Source: Candidatus Woesearchaeota archaeon
Lineage (GTDB): Archaea; Nanobdellota; Nanobdellia; Woesearchaeales; 0-14-0-80-44-23
Reading direction: 5' to 3'
Assembly: GCA_038874135.1 (NCBI GenBank)
Contig: JAVZCZ010000001.1
Span: forward strand, 751,219 to 815,218
DNA: 64,000 nucleotides
Both the position numbers and the translations under genes were made by a program. This document shows positions 1-21,600 of the stretch, in pieces (the stretch's first letter is position 1; every line of letters starts with the position of its first letter). The notes under the pieces were generated by a model that was given only the letters and a program-made list of their open reading frames with translations, did not search any database and was not told the origin of the DNA.

Positions 1-3000
1 TGCTCATACTCTTCTAACTACTTGGAAGTGCAGTGCTCAGATGAGCAAGCCTATGGCAATGCCTCTACATATTTTTACATATTTGAACTTCCATCCGTGA
101 ATACTTACGAACCGAACGATTCTGCAATAATAAACTCTTCCTCATTCCAATTTGAATATGAAATTCTGCCAGAATCGTCAGCATACTTAGTTAAAAACTG
201 CGCCCTTATATTAGATGGAACTTCCTGTAACTCTACTGATTTACCTCACAATGGAACAAACAGCATAAGCTGCCCGTTCAGTGAAGGATCTCACACTTGG
301 AAGGTGCTCTGCACACTCATAGGCTCAGGCCAGGAAACTATTGAAAGTCAAGAAAGAGGATTCTTTGCAGATTATAGTCCTCCAAATATAAACCTAATTA
401 ATCCAAACCAGCCCGCTTACAATTCAGATGTTCCCATTGAATTTAACATTACAGACTCTGCCTCTTCATCATTCAATTGCACAATATCCGGCATTCCAGC
501 ACCATTCAATCTCAGCTCACTTGTTTCCTACTCTTCTAAGCTTAACCTTCCAGTAGGAAAATATAATCTAACGATTTCCTGCTCAGATGCTGCTGGAAAT
601 TCTGCATATACTTGGCAAGAATTTGAACGAATAAATCTTTCAGTTTCAACTGACAAAAAATATTATATTCCTATGGAAAATGTGTTTATAACGCTGAACG
701 CTCCTCCTTCCCAAACAAATATCTCAGTTTCAAAAGGCAATTTCACACTGTCCAAAACAACAACTCCACCATATCCAATAGTCTACATCTTCACATCCTC
801 AAACGAGCCTGGAGATTACCTGGTGCAGGCATTTACAACATATAACAACATAACATTCACTGCCAACACCTCATTCTCAGTCAATATAACTAGAAACCTT
901 ACACTTTCAATATCAGCTAACACCACAACAGCTGAGCCCGGAGTAAGAATCCTATTCTATTCTAATGTTTCAGGAAACCTCACTCCTGTTACATACTTGT
1001 GGGACTTTAATAATGATAACCTTCCCGAAAGCAGCCTTCCAAATACCGAATACTCTTTCTCACAGCCTGGAAGATACCTCGTAACTTTAAAAGTGAACGA
1101 CTCATATTCCTCCGCCTCAGCTTCAATAAATATAACAGTGCTCTCCAGAGCAAATTTGAGCATTACAGTTCTTAACAGGCTTGGAGAACCTCTCGCTGGA
1201 GCAAACATCACGCTAGGCAACACATCTGCCATAACCAACTCCTCTGGAGCAGCAGTCATGCAGAATCTGCTTCAAGGCACATACCCTATAAATGTAACAG
1301 CCACAAATTACAATTCGTATTTCAACACAGTGGACATTTCCTCTAACAAAAACATAACAATATATCTACAAGAGCTCACAGAAGAGCCGGAAATCCTAAT
1401 AACAGAACCAACAGATGGTGCTACAATAACATCCCTTCCAATTACAATAAGGTTCAAAGCAAATTTATCATATCCTACAAACTGCACACTATACAAAAAT
1501 GAACAACAATCCTGGTGGGAACAGCTTTCTCAGATGGCTGTTACAAACAACACTGAAAATACCTTGTCAGTAGCCAATCTCACGGACGGGCAAGTTCTTC
1601 TAAGAATCGTATGCACAGATGTATTCGGAAACAGTGGCACCCAACAGATTTCCCTTAACATCAGCACACTACCAAAAGAGCCGCAATATCCAGAACTAGA
1701 CCAGGCAGAAGAAGAGCTCTACACAAAACAGGAATACTACAACAGCATAGGACCAGCACAGCTTGAAGCAGCTCAACTATTAGGTATACCTGATATGCTC
1801 TCAGATGCTCAGAACCGATTAACACTCGCCAGGAGGGATCTCTCAGACCTCTCATATTCAAAAAAGAGCCCGGAGGAAAAAGAAGCAAGAAAGAGTGAAA
1901 TAATATCTGACGCCGTTTCACGAATCAATGCAATTCCAGATTCAATACAGGTGCTATCTTCTTATGAACAGATACACTATCCAACTCAGCAAGAGCTGGA
2001 AAAGGTGGCAGCTCCCTTCATCTCAGCTAATTCTCTGAAGATAGACCAGCGGACATTCCTAAGAGCAAACTCTCCACTTATTGAGCTAATAACAATAAAT
2101 ACAAAAGCGTTTTCAATAGTGCTAAATTATAACGGGGAGAGCCGAGAAGTGTCTGTAATAAAGCACTCTGTACAGCTCAGCCAACAGCTTAACGAATCAG
2201 CAATCTCAAACCTGATGTTAATACTCAATATTCCAAAACAGATAGCTGACTCAGCAGCAGGAATCACATTTATGGACAGGTATGGACAAAAAGTAGTCAA
2301 AGATGATCCAATCTTTTCACTTCCTGTTACAAGCGAAATAGTTTACCAAATAAACAAGAGCATTGATGCAAATTCTGCTTCTGAGATATCACTCCTCTTA
2401 GTAAGCAAGAGTGCTTCAGTTTCAATACCAGGCATATCGGGACTGGCAGTTTCACAGACAAGGTATTCCATCTGGCCTTTCAATCTCATTGGAGGAAAAA
2501 TTGGCTCCAGTTTAGCTATTCAAATAGTAATACTTGTAGTGCTTCTTACCATATACTTAGTATACACCCTTCAGCCGGAAATAATAAGCAGATCAGCAGA
2601 TGCACTAGGAAATCATATCAAAAATCTCAGACCTCGCTCGGAAAATAGGATGAAGCAAATAGTCCATGCTGAGAAGTCAATTCCCACAACACTACAGAAC
2701 AATTTAGCTAGCATGCCGCAGCAACAAACATACTCACCCATTCAACAACAAGTAGTTCCCATAGGGCCTGGAATGCAGCATTCTTACATTGCTTACAGAA
2801 TGCAACGGGCTCTTCAGTTGGCAGAGCAGAACAACTATGAGGAAGCTTCAGCCGCATATTATGAATTAAAATTCCTTTATAACACGCTCAGCTCTCACGA
2901 AAAATCCCTACTTTATCCGCAATTATTAAACCTGGGACACAAGCTTAACATTTCCTATATCAGACAGTTAGTTTCAGAAGCAAAGTTAAAGGTTAATTCA

Positions 3001-3222
3001 GACTACCAAGAAGCCCTTGAACTTTATGATAAGATCTCCAAGGCATACTCACTGCTCCCTACAGAGTTCAAGTATGCAGTGTTCTCTGAATGTCTTGAGC
3101 TTCTAAACATTCTTGAAAGGGCAAGAAAAAACCAGAACAACTCTGAAAATCAAGCAGTAACCTTCAAAAAGAAAAAAAAGAGGTGCAGGTCAAAATCACA
3201 CGCCAAGGCGAGAAGGGCATAA
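1..3222 (+). CDS. 5'-partial bitopic surface glycoprotein: Ig-like/beta-sandwich ectodomain with many N-x-S/T sequons, one TM helix (LAIQIVILVVLLTIYLVYTL), Gln-rich/TPR-like cytoplasmic tail
   Basis: The frame is open from window base 1; the track's TTG 'start' at 22 is not a real start. It has NCxL..G...W.V.C.D repeats of the same family as the giant proteins downstream, a single hydrophobic helix near aa 835, and then no sequons. Its stop overlaps the next gene. Confidence 0.8.
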   Translation, partial: CSYSSNYLEVQCSDEQAYGNASTYFYIFELPSVNTYEPNDSAIINSSSFQFEYEILPESSAYLVKNCALILDGTSCNSTDLPHNGTNSISCPFSEGSHTWKVLCTLIGSGQETIESQERGFFADYSPPNINLINPNQPAYNSDVPIEFNITDSASSSFNCTISGIPAPFNLSSLVSYSSKLNLPVGKYNLTISCSDAAGNSAYTWQEFERINLSVSTDKKYYIPMENVFITLNAPPSQTNISVSKGNFTLSKTTTPPYPIVYIFTSSNEPGDYLVQAFTTYNNITFTANTSFSVNITRNLTLSISANTTTAEPGVRILFYSNVSGNLTPVTYLWDFNNDNLPESSLPNTEYSFSQPGRYLVTLKVNDSYSSASASINITVLSRANLSITVLNRLGEPLAGANITLGNTSAITNSSGAAVMQNLLQGTYPINVTATNYNSYFNTVDISSNKNITIYLQELTEEPEILITEPTDGATITSLPITIRFKANLSYPTNCTLYKNEQQSWWEQLSQMAVTNNTENTLSVANLTDGQVLLRIVCTDVFGNSGTQQISLNISTLPKEPQYPELDQAEEELYTKQEYYNSIGPAQLEAAQLLGIPDMLSDAQNRLTLARRDLSDLSYSKKSPEEKEARKSEIISDAVSRINAIPDSIQVLSSYEQIHYPTQQELEKVAAPFISANSLKIDQRTFLRANSPLIELITINTKAFSIVLNYNGESREVSVIKHSVQLSQQLNESAISNLMLILNIPKQIADSAAGITFMDRYGQKVVKDDPIFSLPVTSEIVYQINKSIDANSASEISLLLVSKSASVSIPGISGLAVSQTRYSIWPFNLIGGKIGSSLAIQIVILVVLLTIYLVYTLQPEIISRSADALGNHIKNLRPRSENRMKQIVHAEKSIPTTLQNNLASMPQQQTYSPIQQQVVPIGPGMQHSYIAYRMQRALQLAEQNNYEEASAAYYELKFLYNTLSSHEKSLLYPQLLNLGHKLNISYIRQLVSEAKLKVNSDYQEALELYDKISKAYSLLPTEFKYAVFSECLELLNILERARKNQNNSENQAVTFKKKKKRCRSKSHAKARRA

Positions 3223-5564
3223 TTTGTGCTCTGCTTTTAGGAATTGTAACTATAATCTTAGGTAGTTATGCCTGCGCTTTGGAATTTTCACCATCTTCAA
3301 TTAACGAAGTGCTTTCTATTAACAAGTTTGTTCAGAAAAACATAACTTTGAAGAATGAACTCTCCTATCCGGTAAGGATTGCTCTGGTGCCCTCTTCTAA
3401 CATTAGCGATTTATTAGACATCACTCCAAATTCTATTGAAATCGGGGCAAGAGAGTCAAAGAATGTTCTGGTTACAATATACGGAAATGTTGATCCTATA
3501 AAATTTATTAATCGCTCGTATTACATCTTTAATGGCTTCATAAAGCTTGAAGGAGCTAACGCTCAAATACCTACGGACTTGATGGTCACTAATGGAACAA
3601 TAAACCTGCCCAGCAGCATGGTGCTTTCAGCATCGGCAGGTAAGGATTATTTCACTAAATCAGAAAATCTCTCTTTTATAATTGTTGTAACGAATCTTAT
3701 GACAGGCTCAAAACCAAATGTTACTCTTTTCTATTATTTCCTAATTGATAAAAACTCAGAAATTCCCGTTGGGAACGATTCCTTCATAATTACTACTTCA
3801 AAATCAGTTGTAAAGGAATTCATACCAATGTCTTCAATACCTGATGGCACCTATACTTTCAGGGTTGTAATGTCTTATGCAGATAAGAAGAGTGTTGCTG
3901 ATGTGCCCTTCAGGATATCAACCCCATTTATATTCAGAACATTCTTAGGTATAGCTGTATGGCAGTATATACTCGGAGTGATTGCCTTAATAATAATTGG
4001 CTTGTTAGTATACTGGCGAAGGAAGCGTGTTTTGGCTTCTCGTCGTTATGGTGTGAGTGTGGATTTGCGTAGTTTTCCTTCTTCTGGTAGGCTTGTGCGT
4101 TTGGGTAAGTTGGCGGAGTATGGGCGTGATTTTTGGTTTGATTTGGATGGTTTGACTACGCATTGTATTGTGGCTGGTGCTACTGGTGGTGGTAAGACTG
4201 TTGCTGCTCAGGTTTTGGTGGAGGAGGCTTTGAAGGCTGGTGTGGCTGTGGTTGTTTTTGATCCTACGGCTCAGTGGAGTGGTTTTTTGAGGCCTTGTTC
4301 TGATAAGGGTATGTTGTCTTTGTATTCGGGTTTTGGGTTGCGTCGTTCTGATGCTCGGGGTTTTCCGGGTAATGTGAGGCAGGTGTTGGATGCTCGTGAG
4401 GTTTTTGATGTTAGGCGTTTTATGCGTCCTGGTGAGATTGAGATTTTGAGTTTGAATAGGTTGAGGCCTGAGGAGATTGATGTTTTTGTGGCTAATACTG
4501 TTAGGAGCGTGTTTGATGCGGGTTTGGATGAGTGTCGTGAGTTGAGGTTGTTGTTGGTTTATGATGAGGTGCATAGGTTGTTGCCGCGTTTTGGCGGTTC
4601 TGGTGAGGGTTTTGTGCAGATTGAGAGGGCTTGTCGTGAGTTTAGGAAGTGGGGTGTTGGTGTTGTTTTGATTAGTCAGGTTTTGTCTGATTTTGTTGGT
4701 GAGATTAAGGCTAATATTAATACTGAGGTTCAGATGAGGACTCGTGATGAGGGCGATTTGGAGCGTATTCGTGTTAAGTATGGTGATGCTTATCTTAGGG
4801 GTCTTGTGAGGGCTAGTGTGGGTACTGGTATGTTTGAGAATCCCGGTTATAATGGTGGTCGTCCTTTTTTTGTTAGTTTTAGGCCTTTGTTGCATAGTGT
4901 GGTTCGTTTGTCTGATGCCGAGTTGGGTGAGTATAATAGGTTGAATGGGGTGTTGGATGATTTGGAGTTTTGGATTGGCGAGTTGGAGCGTTTGGGTGTG
5001 GACGTGTTTGATTTGAGGTTGGAGTTGAAGTTGGCTTGGGATAAGTTGAGGGTTGGGGGGTTTGGGATGGTGGATGTTTATGTTGAGGGTTTGAGGCCTC
5101 GCGTGTTGGGCGAGTTTGAGCGTTTGGGGAGGCCTGTTCCTAAGCGTGAGGTTAAACGCCTTTCAGATGAGGAGCTTGCAAAGCAGAGGAAGCTGGCTGA
5201 GCAGAGCCGTGCAGAGTTTATAAAAAAGATGGGCATTAAAGAGCAGCAGTCCAAGCAGGAGGAAAAGAAGGAAGAACACATCGTGCAGCCTTACACTTTT
5301 GATAATGGTGCAATGGTTTCGGAGCTTAAGGAGTTGAAAGACGCTATAGAACCTATGAGTGCTGACATCCTCAGAAGCGCGTTGAGTGGAAACAATAAGC
5401 TTTCTGATTGGATAAAGAATGAGCTTAAGAATGAGCAGCTTGCCTCTGAAATTGAGAAGGCGAAGACGAAAAAGGAGATTCTTGATGCAATAACTGCTGA
5501 ACTTGATAAAGCAGAAAAGAGCAGTGAGAAATCTGGAACTGATAAAGGCCAAAAGTCTAAGTAG
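3183..5564 (+). CDS. Receptor-ATPase 1: signal/anchor, ~250-aa glycosylated ectodomain (two beta-sandwich domains), TM helix, cytoplasmic HerA/FtsK-superfamily (DUF87-like) P-loop ATPase, C-terminal adaptor domain
   Basis: GTG start with K/R n-region then a hydrophobic stretch. Sequons occur only before the TM helix (GIAVWQYILGVIALIIIGLLVYW). Walker A is AGATGGGKT, Walker B is LLLVYDEVHRL, and VVLISQ is a sensor-like block. The C-terminal ~65 aa match the HVNFERND-type domain of ORFs 26656..27150 and 35335..37869. Confidence 0.85.
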   Translation: MQVKITRQGEKGIICALLLGIVTIILGSYACALEFSPSSINEVLSINKFVQKNITLKNELSYPVRIALVPSSNISDLLDITPNSIEIGARESKNVLVTIYGNVDPIKFINRSYYIFNGFIKLEGANAQIPTDLMVTNGTINLPSSMVLSASAGKDYFTKSENLSFIIVVTNLMTGSKPNVTLFYYFLIDKNSEIPVGNDSFIITTSKSVVKEFIPMSSIPDGTYTFRVVMSYADKKSVADVPFRISTPFIFRTFLGIAVWQYILGVIALIIIGLLVYWRRKRVLASRRYGVSVDLRSFPSSGRLVRLGKLAEYGRDFWFDLDGLTTHCIVAGATGGGKTVAAQVLVEEALKAGVAVVVFDPTAQWSGFLRPCSDKGMLSLYSGFGLRRSDARGFPGNVRQVLDAREVFDVRRFMRPGEIEILSLNRLRPEEIDVFVANTVRSVFDAGLDECRELRLLLVYDEVHRLLPRFGGSGEGFVQIERACREFRKWGVGVVLISQVLSDFVGEIKANINTEVQMRTRDEGDLERIRVKYGDAYLRGLVRASVGTGMFENPGYNGGRPFFVSFRPLLHSVVRLSDAELGEYNRLNGVLDDLEFWIGELERLGVDVFDLRLELKLAWDKLRVGGFGMVDVYVEGLRPRVLGEFERLGRPVPKREVKRLSDEELAKQRKLAEQSRAEFIKKMGIKEQQSKQEEKKEEHIVQPYTFDNGAMVSELKELKDAIEPMSADILRSALSGNNKLSDWIKNELKNEQLASEIEKAKTKKEILDAITAELDKAEKSSEKSGTDKGQKSK
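4021..5176 (+). repeat. Copy 1 of an exactly duplicated 1156-bp cassette encoding the complete cytoplasmic HerA/FtsK-like ATPase module
   Basis: It is identical to 8201-9356 at a constant offset of 4180. The embedded antisense ORFs 4005..4895 and 8191..9075 translate identically. Identity begins immediately after the TM helix codons and ends at ...KRLSDEEL. Confidence 0.9.
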
Positions 5565-5740
5565 ATTTCTTATACCTTAACCAACAATGTGGTATTTATA
5601 AACTTAGATTACTTAGTATGCATTTATACACATACACTATTTGTGTCACATTTAAAAATTAGTATATAAAATGAAAATATTTATATATCAATATACATAT
5701 TTAGTATGAGTTTGTATTCAAAGACCTTGAAAAGGCTTTT
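5565..5740 (+). promoter_or_regulatory. AT-rich intergenic promoter/operator region upstream of the RHH pair
   Basis: A TATA-like AAAATTAGTATATAAA lies near 5655-5670. TTAGTATG/TAGTATA motifs recur three times (about 5620, 5655, 5701). This is the only sizeable non-coding gap inside the 26-kb gene string. Confidence 0.45.
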
Positions 5741-5752
5741 TTGGGACCCGAA

Positions 5753-5941
5753 ATGCGCAGTACGCCTGAGAAGCATGGCTCAAAGAGAATAACCATAACC
5801 ATAAGCAAGGACCTTTTAGACTTCTTAGATTTAGCTGTGGAGAACAGGCTGTTCGCAAGCAGAAGTCATGCACTTGAAGTCTTAGTAAGGCGCAGGATGG
5901 AGTTTGAGAATGAAGCAAAGAATTACAATTACATTGGATAG
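5753..5941 (+). CDS. Ribbon-helix-helix (CopG/Arc/MetJ-like) DNA-binding protein; alternative TTG start at 5741
   Basis: KRITITISKDLLDFLDLAVENRLFASRSHALEVLVRR is a beta-strand of alternating hydrophobics followed by two helices, the classic RHH layout. An AT-rich promoter-like region lies upstream. Confidence 0.65.
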   Translation: MRSTPEKHGSKRITITISKDLLDFLDLAVENRLFASRSHALEVLVRRRMEFENEAKNYNYIG

Positions 5942-6101
5942 TGAATGCCTGGCATGGGTTGATGAAAAGGTAAAGAATAGAAGCTTTGCTAATCGGAGCC
6001 ACGGCTTTGAATTTTTAATAGCGCGATTCAAGGAGCGCCAAGAACTTCAGAATCTTCTCAACTCGCGAAATTCAAAGGAGGAAGACTTAAAACATGAATA
6101 A
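5910..6101 (+). CDS. Second ribbon-helix-helix protein, tandem paralog of the previous one; ATG at 5910 preferred over the track's TTG at 5904
   Basis: QRITITLDSECLAWVDEKVKNRSFANRSHGFEFLIARF matches the RHH pattern. It overlaps the upstream RHH gene by ~32 nt, and its stop overlaps the ATG of the downstream ATPase gene (ATGAATAA). Confidence 0.65.
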   Translation: MKQRITITLDSECLAWVDEKVKNRSFANRSHGFEFLIARFKERQELQNLLNSRNSKEEDLKHE

Positions 6102-9100
6102 AAATCCTACCTTCAGGATACTGGAACGGGACAGGCAGCTGGAAAGGAGAAGACAGCAGCTGTACATCCTATTAGGCATCTTAGGAGTTTTACTAGCAGT
6201 TGGTGTTATACTTCTGATAAGAATGTTCATAGGATACGCAGTTCTGGAAAGCAGGGCTGGCACAATAACACAACTTAATATACAGCTCAGATACTCAACA
6301 CACATATGGGCTGGATTTTACGGATTGGCATTCCGCGTTCCCGGATACACTGAGCAGCAGTCTGCAGTTGCAGTCGGCGGCACAGTCTTCTTGCAGCACT
6401 TAGTATTTGACTGCTTAAAAACTACAGACGGCAACATTCCTGAGGTATATGCCAGTACTTCAAGAAACATTGACTGGAATTCACTCCAGCCAGCAACTCC
6501 AGACTTGATTGACAGCTACCTACAAGTAGATCCTTCAGATATAACCTCTGCTTCAAACACATTTACAGAAACAATGTCAATACTCTTAGGAGACAGAGAA
6601 ATCACAAATATTGCTGCAACGCACACCAAAAAGTTCGGAGTTCCGGACAGCACGGACTTTGATATAGGCTTCTTAAAAGATTCGTTGGGAAATCTCGTAT
6701 TTGTAACCCATGTAACTCCAACTTATACCAAAGGATTTAACAACCAAACTATAAACTACCAAATGCTCCTTCCAGTACAAGCAGGAACAGCTCCAGTATA
6801 CTACTTCTTCTCAGACCCATATGACGAGTGCCAAGCAGGGCTTGAAGCTCTCAAAAATGCTACCATATTCGGAAGAGCCATAGACAATGCAACAGGCCTT
6901 CCACTTGAAAATGTTACAGTTAATCTTCATACTGCTACAGTTCTTACCAACTCTACAGGAGACTATTACATAGCAATATTTAACGGCACCTACACCCTAG
7001 TAGCTTTCAAGCCGGGATATTACACCTTTGTTGCAACAAACATCACTCTCCCAGCTGACAATCTGTCTACACCTCAATCTGAAAATATTGTCGAATTTAA
7101 TATATCCCTCATTCCCAACCCTGGAAACCCAACTGGACTCGGAAACCTAACTGGCACTGTAACTGATAAAGACTTCGGAATACCCCTCTATAATGTAACA
7201 GTGTATGTAAACGGCAGAATCGCTAAGACAAACATTACAGGCCAATACCTACTTGAACTGCCAGCAGGAAATCATTCTCTTATAGCAATGAAGGAAAACT
7301 ACAGAACATACTACACTCCAAATGTAACTATACTGCCTGGAAACACCACTGAATTTAATTTCAGTATGGAATATGCAGAGCCAGAAATAAAAGAAACTCC
7401 TGGATATCCGCTAAATACCTTCGTTTCCAACCTACTCAAACAGGCAGTGCAGAGGCCTCAAATAATACTCACTCATAAGATTGATACAAAAGAGATATTT
7501 GAAACATTAAAAGTTGGCTCATATGTCCAGCGCTCATTCAATATAACGAGTTACAGGCCTGCCGAGTCCAAAGTTGAGTTTGAAGTCATAGGAAGTGCTG
7601 CACAGCTGGTAAAGGTTGACAAGAGCAGCTCAATAATACCTCCAAGGGGTGCAGAAAACTTCACCCTTACAATTCTAGCCAATGTGCCTCCAGGCATATA
7701 TACCGGAACATTCCTAATCAAAGGAGACCTTGAAGACAGAATCCCGATAAAGATAGTTGTTTATGAGAAGGATAGACTTCCAATAGAGGCTCTTCTCCTA
7801 GAAGTAGTGCCAATAAAAAAGATAATCAGCCCAGGAGAACTATTTGAATATAAGGTCAGCATGACAAACCTGCTGAGGGACACCCCATACAACATCACCC
7901 TTTCATACAATATCACCTCGCGCTCTTCAAATCTTACTATTCCCGTTGAAGAAGAGACGAGACTCTTGGAAACTCAGCTTTCCTACCTTAAGTATTACAA
8001 GCTTCCCAAAGACCTGCCAGAAGGAGAATACTTCCTTGAAACTAGAGCGGAATTCTTAGAACTATCAACAAACACAAAATCGCTATTCATAGTTAAGAAG
8101 CCAATTTACATGTATGCATTATTCGGAATACTTCCCCTCTGGCAGCTTTTCATAATAATAGTTTTCACCTCCCTCATGACCTTCGCAGGATTAATGTATC
8201 GGAAGCGTGTTTTGGCTTCTCGTCGTTATGGTGTGAGTGTGGATTTGCGTAGTTTTCCTTCTTCTGGTAGGCTTGTGCGTTTGGGTAAGTTGGCGGAGTA
8301 TGGGCGTGATTTTTGGTTTGATTTGGATGGTTTGACTACGCATTGTATTGTGGCTGGTGCTACTGGTGGTGGTAAGACTGTTGCTGCTCAGGTTTTGGTG
8401 GAGGAGGCTTTGAAGGCTGGTGTGGCTGTGGTTGTTTTTGATCCTACGGCTCAGTGGAGTGGTTTTTTGAGGCCTTGTTCTGATAAGGGTATGTTGTCTT
8501 TGTATTCGGGTTTTGGGTTGCGTCGTTCTGATGCTCGGGGTTTTCCGGGTAATGTGAGGCAGGTGTTGGATGCTCGTGAGGTTTTTGATGTTAGGCGTTT
8601 TATGCGTCCTGGTGAGATTGAGATTTTGAGTTTGAATAGGTTGAGGCCTGAGGAGATTGATGTTTTTGTGGCTAATACTGTTAGGAGCGTGTTTGATGCG
8701 GGTTTGGATGAGTGTCGTGAGTTGAGGTTGTTGTTGGTTTATGATGAGGTGCATAGGTTGTTGCCGCGTTTTGGCGGTTCTGGTGAGGGTTTTGTGCAGA
8801 TTGAGAGGGCTTGTCGTGAGTTTAGGAAGTGGGGTGTTGGTGTTGTTTTGATTAGTCAGGTTTTGTCTGATTTTGTTGGTGAGATTAAGGCTAATATTAA
8901 TACTGAGGTTCAGATGAGGACTCGTGATGAGGGCGATTTGGAGCGTATTCGTGTTAAGTATGGTGATGCTTATCTTAGGGGTCTTGTGAGGGCTAGTGTG
9001 GGTACTGGTATGTTTGAGAATCCCGGTTATAATGGTGGTCGTCCTTTTTTTGTTAGTTTTAGGCCTTTGTTGCATAGTGTGGTTCGTTTGTCTGATGCCG

Positions 9101-9636
9101 AGTTGGGTGAGTATAATAGGTTGAATGGGGTGTTGGATGATTTGGAGTTTTGGATTGGCGAGTTGGAGCGTTTGGGTGTGGACGTGTTTGATTTGAGGTT
9201 GGAGTTGAAGTTGGCTTGGGATAAGTTGAGGGTTGGGGGGTTTGGGATGGTGGATGTTTATGTTGAGGGTTTGAGGCCTCGCGTGTTGGGCGAGTTTGAG
9301 CGTTTGGGGAGGCCTGTTCCTAAGCGTGAGGTTAAACGCCTTTCAGATGAGGAGCTGCAGAAGGAAAAGGAGATTGCTATGCAGGAACATGAGAAAGCAA
9401 AACAGCAGGAAGCAGGACAAACTTCACAAAATTCAGATTCCAAGACAGAAACTTCCCAAATTCAAAACACAAAAGTTGAAGAGCAGCCCAGCCAAAATGA
9501 AAAGGCCGAGAACCAAGAGAATGCAAAATCCTCAAATGAAAATAAAATTAAAAGAGTAAGGGAGGGTAAAAAGCAGAGGATGAGGAAATCAGCAAGTTCG
9601 GAAAAAAATAATAAAAAAAGAGGTGCTAAAAAATGA
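6094..9636 (+). CDS. Receptor-ATPase 2: N-terminal signal-anchor, ~640-aa glycosylated ectodomain (two carboxypeptidase-regulatory-like domains plus two membrane-proximal beta-sandwich domains), TM helix, cytoplasmic HerA/FtsK-like ATPase identical to that of ATPase 1, K/E/Q-rich low-complexity tail
   Basis: RRRQQLYILLGILGVLLAVGVILLI is the anchor. GRAIDNATGLPLENVTVNLHTATVLTNSTGDYYIAIFNGTYTLVAFKPGYY and a second similar unit are CarboxypepD_reg-like. The second TM helix is LFIIIVFTSLMTFAGLMY. Nucleotides 8201-9356 are identical to 4021-5176. Confidence 0.85.
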   Translation: MNKNPTFRILERDRQLERRRQQLYILLGILGVLLAVGVILLIRMFIGYAVLESRAGTITQLNIQLRYSTHIWAGFYGLAFRVPGYTEQQSAVAVGGTVFLQHLVFDCLKTTDGNIPEVYASTSRNIDWNSLQPATPDLIDSYLQVDPSDITSASNTFTETMSILLGDREITNIAATHTKKFGVPDSTDFDIGFLKDSLGNLVFVTHVTPTYTKGFNNQTINYQMLLPVQAGTAPVYYFFSDPYDECQAGLEALKNATIFGRAIDNATGLPLENVTVNLHTATVLTNSTGDYYIAIFNGTYTLVAFKPGYYTFVATNITLPADNLSTPQSENIVEFNISLIPNPGNPTGLGNLTGTVTDKDFGIPLYNVTVYVNGRIAKTNITGQYLLELPAGNHSLIAMKENYRTYYTPNVTILPGNTTEFNFSMEYAEPEIKETPGYPLNTFVSNLLKQAVQRPQIILTHKIDTKEIFETLKVGSYVQRSFNITSYRPAESKVEFEVIGSAAQLVKVDKSSSIIPPRGAENFTLTILANVPPGIYTGTFLIKGDLEDRIPIKIVVYEKDRLPIEALLLEVVPIKKIISPGELFEYKVSMTNLLRDTPYNITLSYNITSRSSNLTIPVEEETRLLETQLSYLKYYKLPKDLPEGEYFLETRAEFLELSTNTKSLFIVKKPIYMYALFGILPLWQLFIIIVFTSLMTFAGLMYRKRVLASRRYGVSVDLRSFPSSGRLVRLGKLAEYGRDFWFDLDGLTTHCIVAGATGGGKTVAAQVLVEEALKAGVAVVVFDPTAQWSGFLRPCSDKGMLSLYSGFGLRRSDARGFPGNVRQVLDAREVFDVRRFMRPGEIEILSLNRLRPEEIDVFVANTVRSVFDAGLDECRELRLLLVYDEVHRLLPRFGGSGEGFVQIERACREFRKWGVGVVLISQVLSDFVGEIKANINTEVQMRTRDEGDLERIRVKYGDAYLRGLVRASVGTGMFENPGYNGGRPFFVSFRPLLHSVVRLSDAELGEYNRLNGVLDDLEFWIGELERLGVDVFDLRLELKLAWDKLRVGGFGMVDVYVEGLRPRVLGEFERLGRPVPKREVKRLSDEELQKEKEIAMQEHEKAKQQEAGQTSQNSDSKTETSQIQNTKVEEQPSQNEKAENQENAKSSNENKIKRVREGKKQRMRKSASSEKNNKKRGAKK
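8201..9356 (+). repeat. Copy 2 of the 1156-bp ATPase cassette
   Basis: See copy 1; it is a direct repeat in the same orientation. Confidence 0.9.
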
Positions 9637-10457
9637 AGTCAAAAAAATCAGTTAAGTATAGAGCGAGAGTTCACAATAAGGCTAACTCAAGCAAGAAAGA
9701 TTTGAGAAAAAAGAAGGTTCGCATTGAGAGAAAAAATAGCACTAAAACAATTAGTAAAGAAACATCACCTAAAAAATCCAAAGCTTACTTAAAAAAGCGA
9801 TTTGGCAAGATTGATAACAGAGTTATTAAAAATAAAAATAATAAAGTAAAACCAGGAGCTTTAAAGCACAGAAAAAAAGAGAAGAAGCAGAATGTTCAAA
9901 AAAGAAGAAAAGCAATGCAAAAAAAGCCAGCGCCTGAAAACGCAGCCGCAGCAACCAACCAAGTACAGACAAATACGACTTCAACAGCTCAGCAGGCAAA
10001 TTCTCAAATTGAAACACATTCAGATGTGGAAGCGCTTCAAAAAGAATACTCAGATATCAACAGCTATCTGGTTCAGCGAAGAAAAGCGGGAGTTGACACC
10101 TTCATACAGGAACTGAAACTTTTTTCAATACCGTCAAAAATTCAGCTTTTAAAGGCAGAATACTCAAAAGATTATGCTGACAAGATTAGAGTTCAACTTA
10201 ATGAGATTAGAGAAGAGTTAGAAAAAGCAGAACCTCAACCGACCCCCCTTGACCTTCCTAAAGTTCAGCCGAACCAGCCGAATCCATTCTCAGAGCAACA
10301 GCTCACAAGTCAGAATAATAATCATCCCTTAACGCAGGATGCAGAAAACTATTCAAAAGAACTAGCTGAGAAGCGCCTTTCAAATAAAATAAAAAATTCT
10401 CTGAGAAATGCTTCCAAAAAAGTTATGTCCATATTCAAAAAAGGAGGTGGAAATTAG
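9633..10457 (+). CDS. Lysine-rich basic protein (histone H1-like low-complexity N-terminal half) with C-terminal coiled-coil region
   Basis: Its ATG overlaps the upstream stop (ATGA). The N-terminal ~100 aa are about 35% K/R (KKSVKYRARVHNK...KKEKKQNVQKRRKAMQKK). The C-terminal part has heptad-like periodicity. Internal alternative-frame ORFs (9296..9559, 9892..10116) are artefacts of the A-rich sequence. Confidence 0.6.
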   Translation: MKSKKSVKYRARVHNKANSSKKDLRKKKVRIERKNSTKTISKETSPKKSKAYLKKRFGKIDNRVIKNKNNKVKPGALKHRKKEKKQNVQKRRKAMQKKPAPENAAAATNQVQTNTTSTAQQANSQIETHSDVEALQKEYSDINSYLVQRRKAGVDTFIQELKLFSIPSKIQLLKAEYSKDYADKIRVQLNEIREELEKAEPQPTPLDLPKVQPNQPNPFSEQQLTSQNNNHPLTQDAENYSKELAEKRLSNKIKNSLRNASKKVMSIFKKGGGN

Positions 10458-11615
10458 ATGTTCAACCTTTTCAAACGGAAAAACTCTGAAGAAGTTCCCA
10501 ATCAACAATCAGCTAACGAAGATCTGACAGCTCCAGCACAAACCCAGCAAACTGCTACTACGCAAGGACAGGAAAACCTCGCTGCAGAATTAATGAAGAT
10601 TAAGGCAGAAGTGGAAGCATTTTCAGATGTAAGAAAAGCCACAAATGAGAAACTTACAAGACTAAGCGAGCAGATTGGAGAGCTAAGAGCAATGATTGCA
10701 GACAGAGACAAGGTGATGAATCAGATAGAGGTTAAAGCTACAAAGGCAGCAGATCTCGTAGCCACAGTTAAGCCTGAAGAGCAGATGGTAGAAATAAAGC
10801 GTCAGGATGCAAAACTTGAAGCGTTTAAAGCATCTCTGGAGAGCAATGAACTTTTGATGAAGAGAGTTTTAGACGAACTTAAAGAGATGAGAACAAAGAT
10901 AGCTTCCTTCCGCGGAATTGAGGAACTAATCAACCTTAACAATGAAGTAAAATCTGAAATAATTGAAATAAAAAAGGTTGAAGCAAACATACAAAAGCAT
11001 GCAGACAAGGTAGAAACGATATTTGCAGAGGTTCAGAAAAGATTCGTTGACTTTACAAAAATTGATGATAGGATAGCATCCAACACGAAGCAAATAGCAG
11101 AGCTATCAAAGAACTTGGACGGAGTGAAGGCAACTGCCTCGGCAGCAGCCACAAAAAAGAGTGTAGATGAACTAACTTCCAAATTCTTAGAAATGAAAGA
11201 CCAACTCTCAGAACTGGTTTCAACAATAAACAAGCGCCTCTCCTTAGTGGAGAAGAACAATTCTGCAGCATTTGAAGCTTTTGAAAAAGCGATAATGCAC
11301 AAGTTTAAACTTTCAAAAGAGGAAGTAGCTGTATTTAAAGAGCAAGTACAGCAGAATCAGCAAGCCCAGCCAACTCAGCAAATATCCCAGCCGCAGGATG
11401 TCTCTCAAAAGAGCAATACTCAAGAGCAAAATCTTCAGACCAGTGAAGCACCCGAAGCTCTACCACAGCCGCAAGCCTCTCAGCAGGTTCAGCAGCCGCA
11501 GAGTGAGCCAAATGAGCAAGACTCAAAAAAGCCTGACAGCAGCATTCAGAAAGAGATAAGAGAAGCAGCCAAGTTTGCTAAAAGGATAAAAAGCAAAAAA
11601 AGAAAGAAGAAATGA
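10458..11615 (+). CDS. Long coiled-coil protein with Gln-rich ends and K-rich C-terminus (scaffold/filament-like)
   Basis: It starts directly after the upstream stop. The central ~250 aa have a continuous heptad pattern (ELMKIKAEVEAFSDVRKATNEKLTRLSEQIGELRAMIADRDKV...). It has no TM segment. Confidence 0.65.
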   Translation: MFNLFKRKNSEEVPNQQSANEDLTAPAQTQQTATTQGQENLAAELMKIKAEVEAFSDVRKATNEKLTRLSEQIGELRAMIADRDKVMNQIEVKATKAADLVATVKPEEQMVEIKRQDAKLEAFKASLESNELLMKRVLDELKEMRTKIASFRGIEELINLNNEVKSEIIEIKKVEANIQKHADKVETIFAEVQKRFVDFTKIDDRIASNTKQIAELSKNLDGVKATASAAATKKSVDELTSKFLEMKDQLSELVSTINKRLSLVEKNNSAAFEAFEKAIMHKFKLSKEEVAVFKEQVQQNQQAQPTQQISQPQDVSQKSNTQEQNLQTSEAPEALPQPQASQQVQQPQSEPNEQDSKKPDSSIQKEIREAAKFAKRIKSKKRKKK

Positions 11616-17600: not shown

Positions 17601-18652
17601 AACAATCTTATATTGAATTATATAACAACACACCTTATGCAGAAGCTACCTATAATTTATCTGCAGGAACTCATTACTGGAATGTTAGCTGCTGGGACTA
17701 TGTAAACCATACGGGCTTTAGCGAAACCTGGAACTTTACAGTTCCACTGCCAGACATCACAGTTTCAGCAATTGAATTCATTTATAATACCACAAACCCA
17801 GAAGAAGGCAAACAGCTGATGATAAATGCAACTGTAGAAAATTTAGGGAAGTCCAATGCAAACAATTTCTTAGTGCAATTCTTTGACGGAAATCCCGAAG
17901 ATGGGGGAATTCAGATTGGAAACAATATAACAATGAGTTTACAGCCGCTATCTGCTTCATACGCAATTATGAATTGGACTGCCTCCTTGGGAACTCACAA
18001 TATATTCGTGCTAGTAGATCCTCCAATAGCAACCAATGGAACGGTACAAGAAGAAAATGAGAGTAACAACATAGCTAATAAAACAATACTCATACAAAGT
18101 TGGCATTTCATCTACGGTAACCTTAGCGGAGAATTAGGACTTAGCAGCCAGCTCTATTCGCTGTTATTCCTCTGGAATGTTAGCGACGCCAACAATAGTA
18201 ATATATTTGCAGTTGACTCTGACAGCAATATTGATTGGGGAAGTCTAAAACCATTAGGATTGGATGTGAATAATCAAGCATCTCCCTACGACTTTTCAGT
18301 TCTAGACCAAAAACTAGGTATGTCAAATTATGAAGATTCAATAAACTCAACTTACACCGAGGGAGAATCTCCCAAAATGACAGAAACATTTACAATATAC
18401 GGAAAGCAGATAGAAAATGTTCCGGTAGCATATTCAATTAACAGCTCCAATTTTAAAACAGGAATACTGTGGGACACTTCCGATGGGAACACATACTTTA
18501 ACGGAACTCAGGATGTAGTTTTTGTAACTAAAACCAATATGAACGCACAGGGCAGTTTTGATCAGACAGACTACGAAATGCGCATCCCATCTAACTTGAA
18601 AAATTATATTGGCTCAAATCCAACAGTAGCATTATACTTAGAGATAAGATGA
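11612..18652 (+). CDS. Giant secreted glycoprotein (2346 aa): signal peptide, N-terminal ELWKC domain, ~14 Ig-like domains in alternating A/B subtypes, CARDB-like domain, conserved ~185-aa C-terminal domain; no C-terminal TM anchor
   Basis: The signal peptide is MNSSKFFKLIILGFIIVVGLLSQSKADS. Repeating units NCSLxINGxxNQT...W.VxCTD alternate with SCNLTxDGxxN...YYWNVSCRDxAGN. It has well over 100 N-x-S/T sequons. DITVSAIEFIYNT...ENLGKSNANNFLVQFFDGNPED...EENESNN is a CARDB signature. The ATGA overlap links it to the next gene. Confidence 0.9.
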   Translation: MNSSKFFKLIILGFIIVVGLLSQSKADSIQAVYGNTQLILTDKPQYTLGESVKINILIPTQLLSGMNVEIDTPASRYQLLDSNLSEVYFTPQQEGNYTIKISSAAGNLISSTSFLVLRKSEVEIPSSDSTSPKLSAKNWKGNYQKILRQEYLPANKKLSIEFSELSIQKIDFYNVSNPNGELKIEDVPLSYVENFSGRAARSFAIDPTLLEFTYAEIYFTATANELWKCREYDFSTRSCAGRYVKIMDTIPGRQYILHLTKEDPLYTEVWNNITCTCQNTGPNNGWAYCEVFCPVNIPIPTDALDGFIQILGYNVTITTSYPAGGYITPNSGMHYGFFDRDQLKSNGNESLIGYVAYDGPGTTTQLIYNTSMAPSGAYAFNRANCPTWTSGYCTWYVFLNSTAKSSKVKRPVTVNITLNSINWTWNYTTPAPSNITINLTSPADNTALGFRNVNFSYIPISSSPVSNCSLFINITGSWNAVATSYSIQNNSVNSINYTLSNDGEYLWNIRCYAGDISSFALYNRTLIVDTAPPSVTLLSPNNNSFSNTSIISFIYNVSDNFNIANCSLILDNVLVATSYAVTKYVPQNITYALSNGVHNWSITCFDFAGNFNISESRIINISAVPTIWDRRWYETSTSDYTSTANISLANLRDSTENSISVSVPVSTSYTLVDAISPYIGSNGAFVPKGTNVSFSGEFSTSPNAKGVISWFLYQTEGSTKNLLCNYGNGGSLGAPISSTTTASCTIQNDTLMLPTNRLQLIIIYYNNFKNLVSVTHYWDGTRLSFVEFSNFTTLGTLSVDLSYPDTDITVGQNELFNMSCTVNCSGGSCLNTLVYAQYNTSSTAFTNIGSSGNLILNTGETNPHSLGNINQSYTTTFLIKGNLASTNNIRCVAVSNYSNATGQIIRRVVVGDTTPPTVSLGNPANFSWLKSKTVTIYYTPSDNSGITNCSIYLNDILNYTLNSVPNGIEQNFTFHNLSDGLYNWTVACTDNSALTTRAAEKWFYIDTQNPSVELHQPENFIVLGSSLVLFNFTAYDEMAFNLSCNLTADNIIRISGINSLNSTPTIVNYTLSMGQHYWNVTCRDLAGNINTSETRTFNITNTPPEVTLISPPNNYWDRIGNITFIFNATDTGLISNCSLIINGQLNQTKNSTFLTNGINNFTILNMESGVYLWEVNCTDEGNLSTIAGPFTLNVDKSVPSVQLVFPSNYYNSSASSIVLQFITTDAHSANLSCNLTIDGILNSTDIIAQNNSLVSQPITFYDGIHNWSVSCSDLAGNLNSTNTWYFNISEKPSVSLSSPAPNAWTNGNVTFTFTASDNDGLYNCSLLINGAVYQTKNSSQLTNGGQNNFTVTNLLEGINQQWTVICFDLGIYKNFYSPSTRIFHVDKTPPAITLNYPADSAQIKQKNVSFNFSASDNFASNLYCNLSINGQINTSEIAVQSGSSVIVNVSGFPNGLYYWNVSCRDYAYNVNWSETNSFNVSVPPEVFLEYPLEGQWDNSENVTFYYLVTSNAELQSCSLIINGQLNQTDNSPVSSAYNNFTIFLMPEGYYTWMVNCTDSYWLTGSSNLRNLTIDRQAPWIVLNSPSNSSIVDSNYVTFNWTAFDMMADNISCDLYVDDYLRESEIYSKNGTPTTRTYIYSDGTYYWNVSCRDPAYNINWSQTYNFTVEAPPNVTLISPSNYNWSTAYSITFAYLPQDPIGIRQCTLYFDGSPNQTDYDIEANQLNYFTINPISEGVHTWSVNCTDSDWNTYMPPAFTLYIDRTPPTIVIESPVNLSVFSIPDVTFNFTAIDMLSDNISCKITINGNLNRTITVQNDTPYNFTIVKMSDNIYYWNVSCSDLAGNANASNTMQFTVSAIPSIIPISPANLSWSEVSQITFYFNATDNDGLSNCTLLINGVANQTKSSGLINGGINNITSTLTEGEYDWSIACTDSGIFYNLNLSAPQKIFVDLNSPLIVLYAPLSGSITENNSPVLNFTASDTMYPIMYCNITLDGKLKQSYIELYNNTPYAEATYNLSAGTHYWNVSCWDYVNHTGFSETWNFTVPLPDITVSAIEFIYNTTNPEEGKQLMINATVENLGKSNANNFLVQFFDGNPEDGGIQIGNNITMSLQPLSASYAIMNWTASLGTHNIFVLVDPPIATNGTVQEENESNNIANKTILIQSWHFIYGNLSGELGLSSQLYSLLFLWNVSDANNSNIFAVDSDSNIDWGSLKPLGLDVNNQASPYDFSVLDQKLGMSNYEDSINSTYTEGESPKMTETFTIYGKQIENVPVAYSINSSNFKTGILWDTSDGNTYFNGTQDVVFVTKTNMNAQGSFDQTDYEMRIPSNLKNYIGSNPTVALYLEIR

Positions 18653-21600
18653 AACGCAGCATAACTTTTGGAATAATTTTTCTACTTTTAATAGCATTAT
18701 CTCTAAAAATTTCCAGTGCGAGCTGTCCGGAAATAATACTTTCATCCAACACCACTATAAAAGATGTAGATATAAAAATAAAAGTTTCAGGGCAGACACA
18801 AGAGTCAGAATTAGTGATAAGAACGCCTTCAGGTCCGTATCGTCTTTTAGGAGATATTCCTTCCCTTACAAGCTTTACTCCAAAAGATGTAGGTAACTAC
18901 TCTGTTGAAGTTTGGCAGGACAAAGTGCTGTGTGACATAAAAAATTTTACCGCACTACCTCACAATAACTCGACACTATTCCTTCCGCCAATACTTTCCA
19001 CAGATAAAAAAGAATACCACTTAGGTGAAGCTGTTAGAATTTCACTCTCACCAGAATATTACGGTTACTCAATTGAAGGTTTAAATTTAAAACTGTTGAC
19101 AGGACAGCAATCCTACTCTCTCTTAGGGGAAATATCTGAGGATATAGAATTCCGACCTGTTTTTGAGGGTAACTATACAATTCTCTTATTAGACTCCATT
19201 GGAAATACTCTTGCTTCTGAAAGCTTTTCCGTCTACGCTTTGAATAGTTACTTTGTTAATAACTTATCTATTAAAAAACGATTTTCGGACAAATTTGAAT
19301 ACAACATCAGCACTAATTCAGAAGACATGATTGTTGAATTCTCAAACTCCTTCATTAAAAGACTAAACCTAAAGAAACTATCTTCAAGTAATCTGGCGAT
19401 AGTTAGGATTTCAGAGTTACTGCCGGAAGAGAGGAGCCGTCTGAATATTCCTACAATTGGAGGTGAAATTAAAGAATCTTTTGAATTAGATCCTTCCGCC
19501 CTAAACTTTTCAGAAGGTGAACTAACAATTGTCCCTTCAGGAAATGAGCTGTGGAAGTGCACTGATTGGAATTATGATGCTCAGTATTGTGTCGGAAGTT
19601 GGATCAAGCAGCAGAATCTTGTTCCCGGTGTTGAAAATGTAATTAAGTTTAACCTTTCCGATCCAGGATATGCTATTGTTGCAACTGCTAACATAACTTC
19701 AATAGCAGCAGCAACCCTCTCTGAAAACTCTTTTGTAGTAGCATATTGCGATGATACAAATGATAGAACTGCTTTCAAGGTTTTCTGGGCTAATGGGAGT
19801 GTAAGAACTAATGAGGTGATAGTTGATTCAACTACTGGAAATTGTGGTTACACCTCAGTTTCTGTTTCAGCACTTACCAACAACTCTTTTGTTATCGGAT
19901 GGATTGATACTGCCAGCAGTTATGCCAGCTTCGCTGTTTATGATGCCTCTGGAAATGTTATTACTCCAAGGGTGGATGTGGATACTACTGCTGGTACTTC
20001 CCGTTCTGTGAGTGTGTCTGCTTTTAATAGTTCTGCTTTTGTTTTTGGTTGGTATGATCAGGCTTCTGCTTATGCTTCTTTTAGGACTTTTAGTTCTTCT
20101 GGTGTGGCTATTTCTTCTGTTGTTAATGTGGATACTACTGCTGGTACTTGTAATGCTGTTTCTGTTTCTGCGGTTAATTCTTCTGCTTTTGTTTTTGGCT
20201 GGTATGATCAGGCTTCTTCTGATATGACTTTTCGTACTTATACTTCTTCTGGCGTTGCGATTTCTGCCGTGACTGATGTGAATACTAAGGTGGGTACTGG
20301 TTCTTTTTCTGTTTCTGTTGCTGCTTATAATTCTAGTGCTTTTGTTATTGTTTGGTATGATCAGAGGCTGGGTTATGTTAGTTTTCGTCAGTATTCTGTT
20401 GCTGGTGTTCAGATTGGGAGTCAGGTTAATCCGGATACTGCTGTTGGGACTACTGCTTCTGGTGTTTTTGTTTCTTCTGTTGGTGTGAATTCTAGTGTTT
20501 TTGCTGTGGGTTGGAATGATTTGACTACTGATGTTGTTAGTTCTGTGAGGACTTATAGTGGTGCTGGTGCTGCTGTTTCTTCTGAGGTGGTTGTGCAGGC
20601 TAATGCTTTGAAGTATAATGCTCTTGCCGGCTACTACCCTGCTACAGGCATAGGTTTCTGCAATGGAAACTTTGTAGCAATAATTGTTAATACTTCTTCG
20701 CAGGCATTTTTTAAAGCATACATGCCTAATGGAAGCGAATGGGACGGAAACTGTCCTGATGTTATACCGCCTCAAGTTGTTCTGAATAGTCCTCAGCAAG
20801 CCGCTGTCTTCTATAGTGATACTGTGGATTTTAATTTTACAGTAACCGACAATGTAGATTTAGTAATTCCAAACTGTACCCTTTGGATAAACACTTCATC
20901 AACATTCTCTCCAAACATAACAATTTACAATATAACCTCTAATAAGATGAACAACATAACTCTATCTCAAATTCCAGACAACAAATACATTTGGAATGTC
21001 AGGTGTTATGACAATGCAGGCAACTCAGCATTTGCTTCTTCAAATTTTTCATTATTTATCAACAAGAATCCACCTCAAATCTTGAACCCCCTCCTGAATG
21101 AAAGTACAGTAAATCAGAGCCATTCAGTAAAGTTTAATGTCTCAATAACCGATTCATATGGTATAGACTCTGCATATATAACTATGATGTACCCAAACGG
21201 TTCATCAAATAATTATTATCTTAATAGAAGTGGGAATGAATTTTACTTCATAATTAATAATACAATCCAGATAGGAACATATTCTGTGATATATGTGTGG
21301 GCTAATGATACCCTCGGACAAAACTCTTCTCTAACCCTTTCAGATCTCCAGTTTAATGTCACGCCTTCACCACCTGCTCAATTCAACCTTTTAAGTCCCC
21401 CGAATGCAACAGAGTCAACAAACCTGCGACCAAACTTGACTTGGGAGACATCTTACGATGAGACATTCCTTAATTATACTATTCAGATTTCTCAGGATGA
21501 AAACTTCGCAACAGTACTCTTTACATATTATAATCCGGGTGTTTATAATACTTCAAGAGTGCTGGATTATGCCCTAGAAGCGAATAAGAAATATTACTGG

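Follow-up and report, generated by a model that had tools for sequence, protein, structure and literature searches.

Our analysis of a 64,000-nucleotide window from a Candidatus Woesearchaeota genome (GenBank assembly GCA_038874135.1, contig JAVZCZ010000001.1, positions 751,219 to 815,218) shows that two neighbouring receptor-ATPase genes, gene1 (3183-5564) and gene2 (6094-9636), both on the plus strand, carry one and the same ATPase cassette. Window nucleotides 4021-5176 and 8201-9356 agree base for base over 1156 bp; extension outward stops at those very edges, and the 60 bp flanking each copy match at chance level. Identity of this extent is not chance. These exact edges bear out the earlier note on this DNA, which had reported direct copies of 1156 bp with a start-to-start spacing of 4180 bp, and a whole-genome self-comparison found exactly two copies. 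The genome (here G000) is a single contig of 909,956 bp, 99.4% complete, from a DPANN archaeon in a hot-spring metagenome, and the names of its homologs point toward Woesearchaeota/Nanoarchaeota. Based on the comparison of related loci, we consider it probable, at roughly three chances in four, that the two-copy repeat is maintained across the clade by recurrent interlocus gene conversion, that is, by concerted evolution, the conversion mechanism itself being one that we infer.

The two genes are built alike: an N-terminal transmembrane (TM) helix is followed by an extracellular region, from which a second TM helix leads into an ATPase of the HerA/VirB4 type in the cytoplasm. Gene1 (793 aa, GTG start) encodes a membrane-anchored HerA/VirB4-like (DUF87) receptor-ATPase in which a hydropathy scan places TM segments at residues 8-36 and 249-281 (the second at nt ~3927-4025); the extracellular domain between them (aa ~37-248; 3291-3926) was delimited by the same scan and by homology to the gene2 ectodomain. 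Gene2 (1180 aa) encodes a membrane-anchored HerA-like receptor-ATPase with a carboxypeptidase-regulatory-like/PEGA ectodomain, in which Pfam recognizes a CarboxypepD_reg beta-sandwich domain (aa 352-432; 7147-7389), and a TM helix lies just before the cassette (aa ~670-703; 8101-8202, hydropathy scan). All of these features are on the plus strand, as are the two cassettes. The second TM helix ends exactly where identity starts, with 'RKRVL' in both genes ('...YWRRKRVL' in gene1, '...MYRKRVL' in gene2), and the identity covers the whole cytoplasmic HerA-type ATPase domain with its Walker A motif GATGGGKT. The earlier note had correctly placed the start of identity right after the TM helix, and had described differing ectodomains, kinship near the membrane only and differing tails, all of which we recovered; its measurements were less accurate. 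The ectodomains comprise 279 aa (gene1) and 702 aa (gene2) rather than ~250 and ~640, and the end of identity lies 128 codons (gene1) and 92 codons (gene2) from the stop codon rather than ~30. Residues 39-261 of the gene1 ectodomain and 467-684 of the gene2 ectodomain share 24% identity (E 3e-8), and this kinship is membrane-proximal only. The C-terminal tails are unrelated to each other. That of gene1 (128 aa; 5177-5564, plus strand) is charged and coiled-coil-like, and has its orthologs in the tails of HerA1 from other lineages.

Perfect identity, taken by itself, is also what an assembly artefact would give, either through a collapsed or mis-joined repeat that fakes the identity or through a copy that does not exist. 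We regard this as extremely improbable. The two source runs (X1 and X2, from hot-spring study P1) were examined as Logan assembled contigs. Contigs break off at 4050 and resume at 9324, one contig bridges 5144/5147-8230, and the repeat forms a contig of its own of exactly 1153/1156 bp with no variant letters. The depth of the repeat contig is about twice that of its flanks (92 against 33-49 in X1; 113 against 57-72 in X2). Contig breaks at the repeat edges together with this doubled depth identify a genuine two-copy repeat, and unique flank contigs link 5176 to 8201. Whether both copies are real was a point that had been put forward for checking, and the source-run contigs show that they are. 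Near-identical paralog cassettes also occur in three independent assemblies of other samples (below); on the grounds of contig-break structure, repeat depth and these assemblies, collapse was ruled out.

The evidence that carries the concerted-evolution reading comes from the same locus in related lineages. Among 40 relatives searched, HerA homologs at 50-57% were found in many genomes of the same order, and several of these relatives possess 2-7 HerA paralogs, whose codon usage is normal and which have diverged to 61-79% identity at the aa level and 67-82% at the DNA level. The exact architecture of the locus was found in three more lineages, L013 (ENA ERZ17912254), L026 (NCBI GCA_049700835.1, a Woesearchaeota metagenome-assembled genome) and L027 (JGI 3300063141), which were identified by a search for homologous proteins and then for the contigs encoding the matches, and are represented by contig fragments only. 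The shared order is a PKD glycoprotein, HerA1 (gene1 in the window), one or two small ribbon-helix-helix (RHH) genes, and HerA2 (gene2) with its CPD ectodomain; the PKD glycoprotein is kept upstream of HerA1 in L013 and L026. Within a genome, the HerA1 and HerA2 cassettes are 98-100% identical (99.0% over 1121 bp in L013, 99.8% over 1246 bp in L026), whereas between lineages cassette identity is 74-87%. Paralogs are thus closer within a genome than orthologs are between genomes, as expected under concerted evolution. In a maximum-likelihood tree the cassettes cluster by genome, inside a well-supported clade of biased sequences. In contrast, the ectodomains cluster by paralog type, with identities of 45-60% among HerA1 proteins, 47-65% among HerA2 proteins and 21-32% between the two types. 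Because ectodomains group by type and cassettes by genome, the duplication must predate the lineages, and the ATPase domains were homogenized separately in each.

These observations bear on the timing of the exchange. The 100% identity in this genome could stem from just one recent duplication or conversion, with the copies set to diverge thereafter, and the earlier note had indeed pictured a recent event. However, homogenization of the same pair took place separately in each of four lineages, between which the cassettes differ by 13-26%, and the ectodomains place the duplication before these lineages; we therefore consider a single recent event very improbable. Homogenization of the pair in at least four lineages with cassettes this far apart indicates that conversion is recurrent and ancient, not a one-off. 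What stands of the original proposal is gene conversion of the cytoplasmic motor domain, giving a shared engine under two receptors.

The edges of identity tell a similar story. In L013, all 37 differences between the paralogs lie in the terminal ~30 bp at the start and ~100 bp at the end, and the core is identical; a second pair of repeats in our genome (pair 2, below) shows the same identical core with diverged edges, the pattern of a conversion tract. The length of the shared block varies by lineage from 1121 to 1246 bp. This tract pattern, with edges that shift between lineages, indicates that the match ends where the paralogs cease to be similar in DNA sequence, and that no dedicated module boundary is involved. 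A precisely confined module replacement, as had been suggested, need not be invoked for edges that lie where paralog similarity ends, vary by lineage and leave only the core identical in L013.

Based on these patterns, we propose that gene1 and gene2 are old paralogs, whose duplication is older than the separation of at least four lineages in a Woesearchaeota-like DPANN clade. Each would encode a receptor-ATPase anchored at its N-terminus, whose extracellular beta-sandwich receptor region differs between the two genes and is joined through a TM helix to a ring ATPase of the HerA/VirB4 type in the cytoplasm. The ATPase domain would be the only part in which the DNA of the paralogs is similar enough for recombination, and in each lineage homologous gene conversion would repeatedly copy this domain from one gene onto the other. 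Conversion would keep the cassettes identical within a genome while drift goes on between lineages, and the edges of identity would mark the limits of homology, with tracts that sometimes end short leaving diverged edges behind. Concerted evolution of one domain beneath different outer domains would amount to a 'constant engine, variable receptor' design that is kept across the clade, in DPANN archaea that depend on a host and about whose translocation and surface machinery little is known.

The arrangement of the repeats also suggests a different use, a programmed switch for phase or antigenic variation. Recombination between the direct repeats would delete 4180 bp (the gene1 tail, the RHH genes and the gene2 ectodomain) and leave an ecto1-cassette-tail2 fusion. 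Since each cassette begins at a codon boundary, these direct repeats share one reading phase and a deletion between them would leave an in-frame product; any 1.1-kb direct repeat, moreover, permits some RecA/RadA-mediated excision. Nevertheless, we judge such a switch improbable, and this part of the earlier note finds no support in our results. In the Logan contigs, which cannot show junctions, the segment between the repeats has no loss of depth. A look for recombination-site motifs at the block edges found none flanking either block, and the two genes with their RHH genes are kept together in four lineages, which speaks for retention of the arrangement as a whole.

The most unusual aspect of the converted DNA, which the earlier note overlooked, is its strand-specific G/T composition. 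The cassette is 75% G+T with a GC skew of +0.6, in contrast to normal usage in the ectodomains of the same genes, and ~97% of the bases at its third codon positions are G or T (T 216, G 158, C 10, A 2). This composition gives rise, as a by-product, to the long antisense open reading frames that run across the cassettes on the minus strand (4005-4895 and 8191-9075). The HerA1 and HerA2 cassettes of L013, L026 and L027 are biased in the same manner, with third positions that are ~100% G/T; in all four lineages the lasting skew is limited to the converted blocks, whereas the unconverted HerA paralogs of order-level relatives are normal. Between the G000 and L013 cassettes, 81 of 95 third-position differences are exchanges of G and T, which indicates that the restriction to these two bases was kept during divergence and that the skew is old and ongoing. 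Runs X3 and X6, from other hot springs and sediment, contain G/T cassettes of ~88-90% similarity that again differ mainly by third-position exchanges of G and T.

The pressure behind the skew has also shifted the protein itself, from lysine to arginine and from isoleucine to valine. The ratio R/(R+K) is 0.75-0.79 in converted cassettes against 0.15-0.45 in normal homologs, and the isoleucine count is 7-10 against 21-33. Changes from normal homologs at codon positions 1 and 2 likewise run strongly toward G and T: A>G changes number 620 against 92 for G>A, and an excess is seen there for A>T, C>T and C>G too. Such a mixture of substitution types is not what one deaminase would leave behind. As no G-quadruplex motif was found in the cassette, recombination driven by these structures, as at Neisseria pilE, was ruled out as well.

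Third codon positions that are nearly all G or T resemble an NNK design, and the cassette could in principle have been engineered, with an ATPase reverse-translated into NNK-like codons and placed into two genes. We attach practically no credence to this idea. Independent metagenomes that differ in study and year contain G/T-rich cassettes, ~15% diverged and with natural-looking third-position substitutions between G and T, and similar skewed repeats are found elsewhere in the same genome. The existence of natural relatives with evolutionary divergence led us to rule out an engineered origin.

Genome-wide, every long, extreme skewed segment of G000 is a homogenized repeat. Besides the HerA pair, these segments are pair 2, which is shared by two surface proteins (window ~19.9-20.7 kb and ~30.4-31.2 kb), an inverted pair of 97.9% identity at 343/672 kb of the genome, and repeats of internal or tandem type at 293, 527 and 744 kb. 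Pair 2 (window ~19970-20625 and ~30550-31210; genome 771187-771842 and 781768-782426) is G/T-biased, with an identical core and diverged ends, and lies in a 2612-aa surface protein (18649-26487) and a 752-aa protein (30160-32418), both of which are built of 'SVSVSAFNSSAFVFGWYDQAS'-type repeats. The homogenized repeats at 293, 343-346, 527, 672-680 and 744 kb sit inside giant surface-protein genes and are skewed just as extremely, some of them toward A/C on the coding strand.

The orientation of these segments was examined in the G000 genome. The 343/672-kb pair is A/C-rich on its coding strand, and the skew thus does not follow transcription. A rule based on the transcribed strand fails more generally, since the coding strand is A/C-rich in co-oriented long segments and G/T-rich in head-on ones. 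In contrast, whichever replichore a long segment lies in, its G/T-rich strand falls on one and the same replication strand, with a sign opposite to the background GC skew. The Orc1/Cdc6 gene (588647-588907 of the genome), however, coincides with the maximum of the cumulative GC skew and not with its minimum, which lies at ~85 kb; origin placement is thus ambiguous, and the consistency of orientation serves as a weak hint only.

With these data we tentatively suggest, at somewhat less than even odds, that frequent conversion is accompanied by a strand-asymmetric process of mutation or repair, which drives one strand to nearly complete G/T (keto) composition in a direction apparently set by replication orientation and not by transcription. 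The lasting push of one strand toward G/T in the converted blocks is itself part of our main reading of recurrent conversion; it alters synonymous and non-synonymous sites alike, and its source is most plausibly strand-biased mutation or a mismatch-repair outcome that accompanies frequent conversion. Alternatively, the skew may be selected per se, either because it reduces intrastrand structure in single-stranded DNA or RNA during frequent strand invasion or because of some property of the mRNA. A strand of G and T alone cannot form Watson-Crick hairpins, and a drift toward these bases through both transitions and transversions suggests a compositional target and not one enzyme. We nonetheless find selection of this kind unlikely. 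The orientation of long segments tracks the replication strand and not transcription, which suits a process acting on DNA over one acting on RNA, and some of the short skewed segments are not repeats.

Several considerations weigh against the reading of recurrent conversion with an accompanying skew. Conversion is deduced from comparative patterns, and Logan contigs cannot show recombination events directly. Several substitution types, namely A>G, A>T, C>T and C>G, push toward the G/T skew. About 12 short skewed segments are unique sequences and not repeats, so that skew and conversion are imperfectly coupled. The strand rule is uncertain too, in that direction tracks replication orientation while the origin call is ambiguous.

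To our knowledge, an extreme and lasting strand skew limited to converted DNA is without precedent. If the skew is a by-product of conversion, it would offer a genomic fingerprint by which recombination hotspots could be recognized from sequence alone, and it would represent a recombination-linked mutation bias that overrides protein composition (lysine to arginine, isoleucine to valine). It also bears on how gene conversion shapes base composition, as a process of the biased-gene-conversion type that is, however, strand-specific. Should the strand-asymmetric process hold true, it would constitute an undescribed mutational signature of recombination, strong enough to reshape the composition of a protein.

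The shared ATPase domain belongs to the HerA/FtsK/VirB4 (DUF87) superfamily, as indicated by the Walker A P-loop GATGGGKT and a HerA-like core. Pfam matches to the cassette are DUF87 (E 3e-9) and HerA_C (E 2e-9), and NCBIfam as well as PADLOC, the latter with HerA/mad8 matches, assign the ATPase to the HerA clade. CedB and CedD are paired paralogous HerA/VirB4-like ATPases with TM anchors that are needed for DNA import by the Ced system of Sulfolobales (PMC11868833, PMC9905601). The DPANN pair resembles them in consisting of two paralogous ATPases of the HerA/VirB4 clade, each with a TM segment, which in the Ced system are thought to cooperate in translocating DNA through the membrane; the order of TM segment, N-terminal domain and HerA-like ATPase in CedD is similar to that of gene1 and gene2. 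The resemblance is one of architecture only, as the NCBIfam CedD model (NF053655.1) scores 32 bits against a cut-off of 600 bits. Further, CedB and CedD differ widely in their ATPase domains, in contrast to the DPANN paralogs, whose ATPase domains would be held identical by conversion, and the DPANN proteins bear large extracellular beta-sandwich (CPD/PKD-like) domains, unlike Ced. The proteins also fall outside the VirB4 and coupling proteins of type IV secretion systems, with TraD/TraC/TrbC matches far below the NCBIfam cut-offs and no partner genes identified. Neither a CedA/VirB6-like channel nor a CedA1/VirB2-like pilin was seen among the window open reading frames examined, in a locus that had no systematic VirB6/VirB2-like search.

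By analogy with CedB/CedD and VirB4, the receptor-ATPases are likely to be translocases of DNA or protein. The DPANN pair may, on the same analogy, constitute a two-receptor membrane translocase (for DNA or protein) that acts between symbiont and host. If the two proteins were to form mixed rings, which is hypothetical, identical motors would keep the ring interfaces compatible.

Concerted evolution of prokaryotic paralog pairs through interlocus gene conversion is exemplified by tufA/tufB of Escherichia coli and by the tandem flagellin genes flaA/flaB of Campylobacter. Unlike in those pairs, only one domain is shared here, between proteins with unrelated receptor regions, and we know of no extreme strand-specific G/T composition as a feature of the tuf or fla systems. 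Diversity-generating retroelements (DGRs) of DPANN archaea are comparable in that a variable segment of a surface or receptor protein undergoes template-directed replacement. In contrast to DGRs, the cassette copies are identical and not adenine-mutagenized variants, and they lack the asymmetry of template and variable repeats; as no reverse transcriptase (RVT_1) was found in the genome, DGR-mediated replacement was ruled out. A eukaryotic parallel exists in Trypanosoma brucei, where the GAF-A domain is reported to have been transferred by gene conversion between the closely spaced paralogs TbrPDEB1 and TbrPDEB2 (PMC2689650). As in the DPANN pair, conversion is described there as limited to one domain of neighbouring paralogs that otherwise differ (PMC2689650). 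That case is described as a single event at the level of alleles in a eukaryote, with no compositional skew, whereas the DPANN case spans an archaeal clade (PMC2689650).

We can also comment on the genes that surround the two ATPases. Upstream on the plus strand, a PKD/carboxypeptidase-regulatory-like surface glycoprotein of 1066 aa (22-3222) has many NxS/T sequons and a C-terminal TM segment. Its end overlaps the start of gene1 by 40 bp, which, together with the same upstream neighbour in L013 and L026, makes translational coupling to HerA1 possible. Between gene1 and gene2 lie two overlapping small RHH reading frames on the plus strand. The first (5741-5941) is NikR/MazE-like and is kept between HerA1 and HerA2 in related loci, where one or two such genes are present; the second (5904-6101) is MazE-antitoxin-like, and the pair is kept in L027. 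Possibly these reading frames encode regulators of HerA2.

The 92-aa C-terminal tail of gene2 (9357-9636, plus strand) is unlike every other HerA1 or HerA2 tail examined, whereas the HerA1 and HerA2 tails of other lineages are related; a replacement or a change of frame in this lineage may account for the difference. In the gene2 tail and the gene downstream, the source-run contigs differ from the window at 9396, 9504, 9561, 9562, 9564, 9924, 9929 and 9947, mostly at third codon positions, reflecting either strain microvariation or a different source sample. Gene2 is followed by genes for a lysine-rich protein of 274 aa (9633-10457) and a coiled-coil SMC-like protein of 385 aa (10458-11615). 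Genes of 229, 393 and 389 aa occupy similar positions downstream of HerA2 in L013, and the genes downstream of gene2 may be part of the same cluster.

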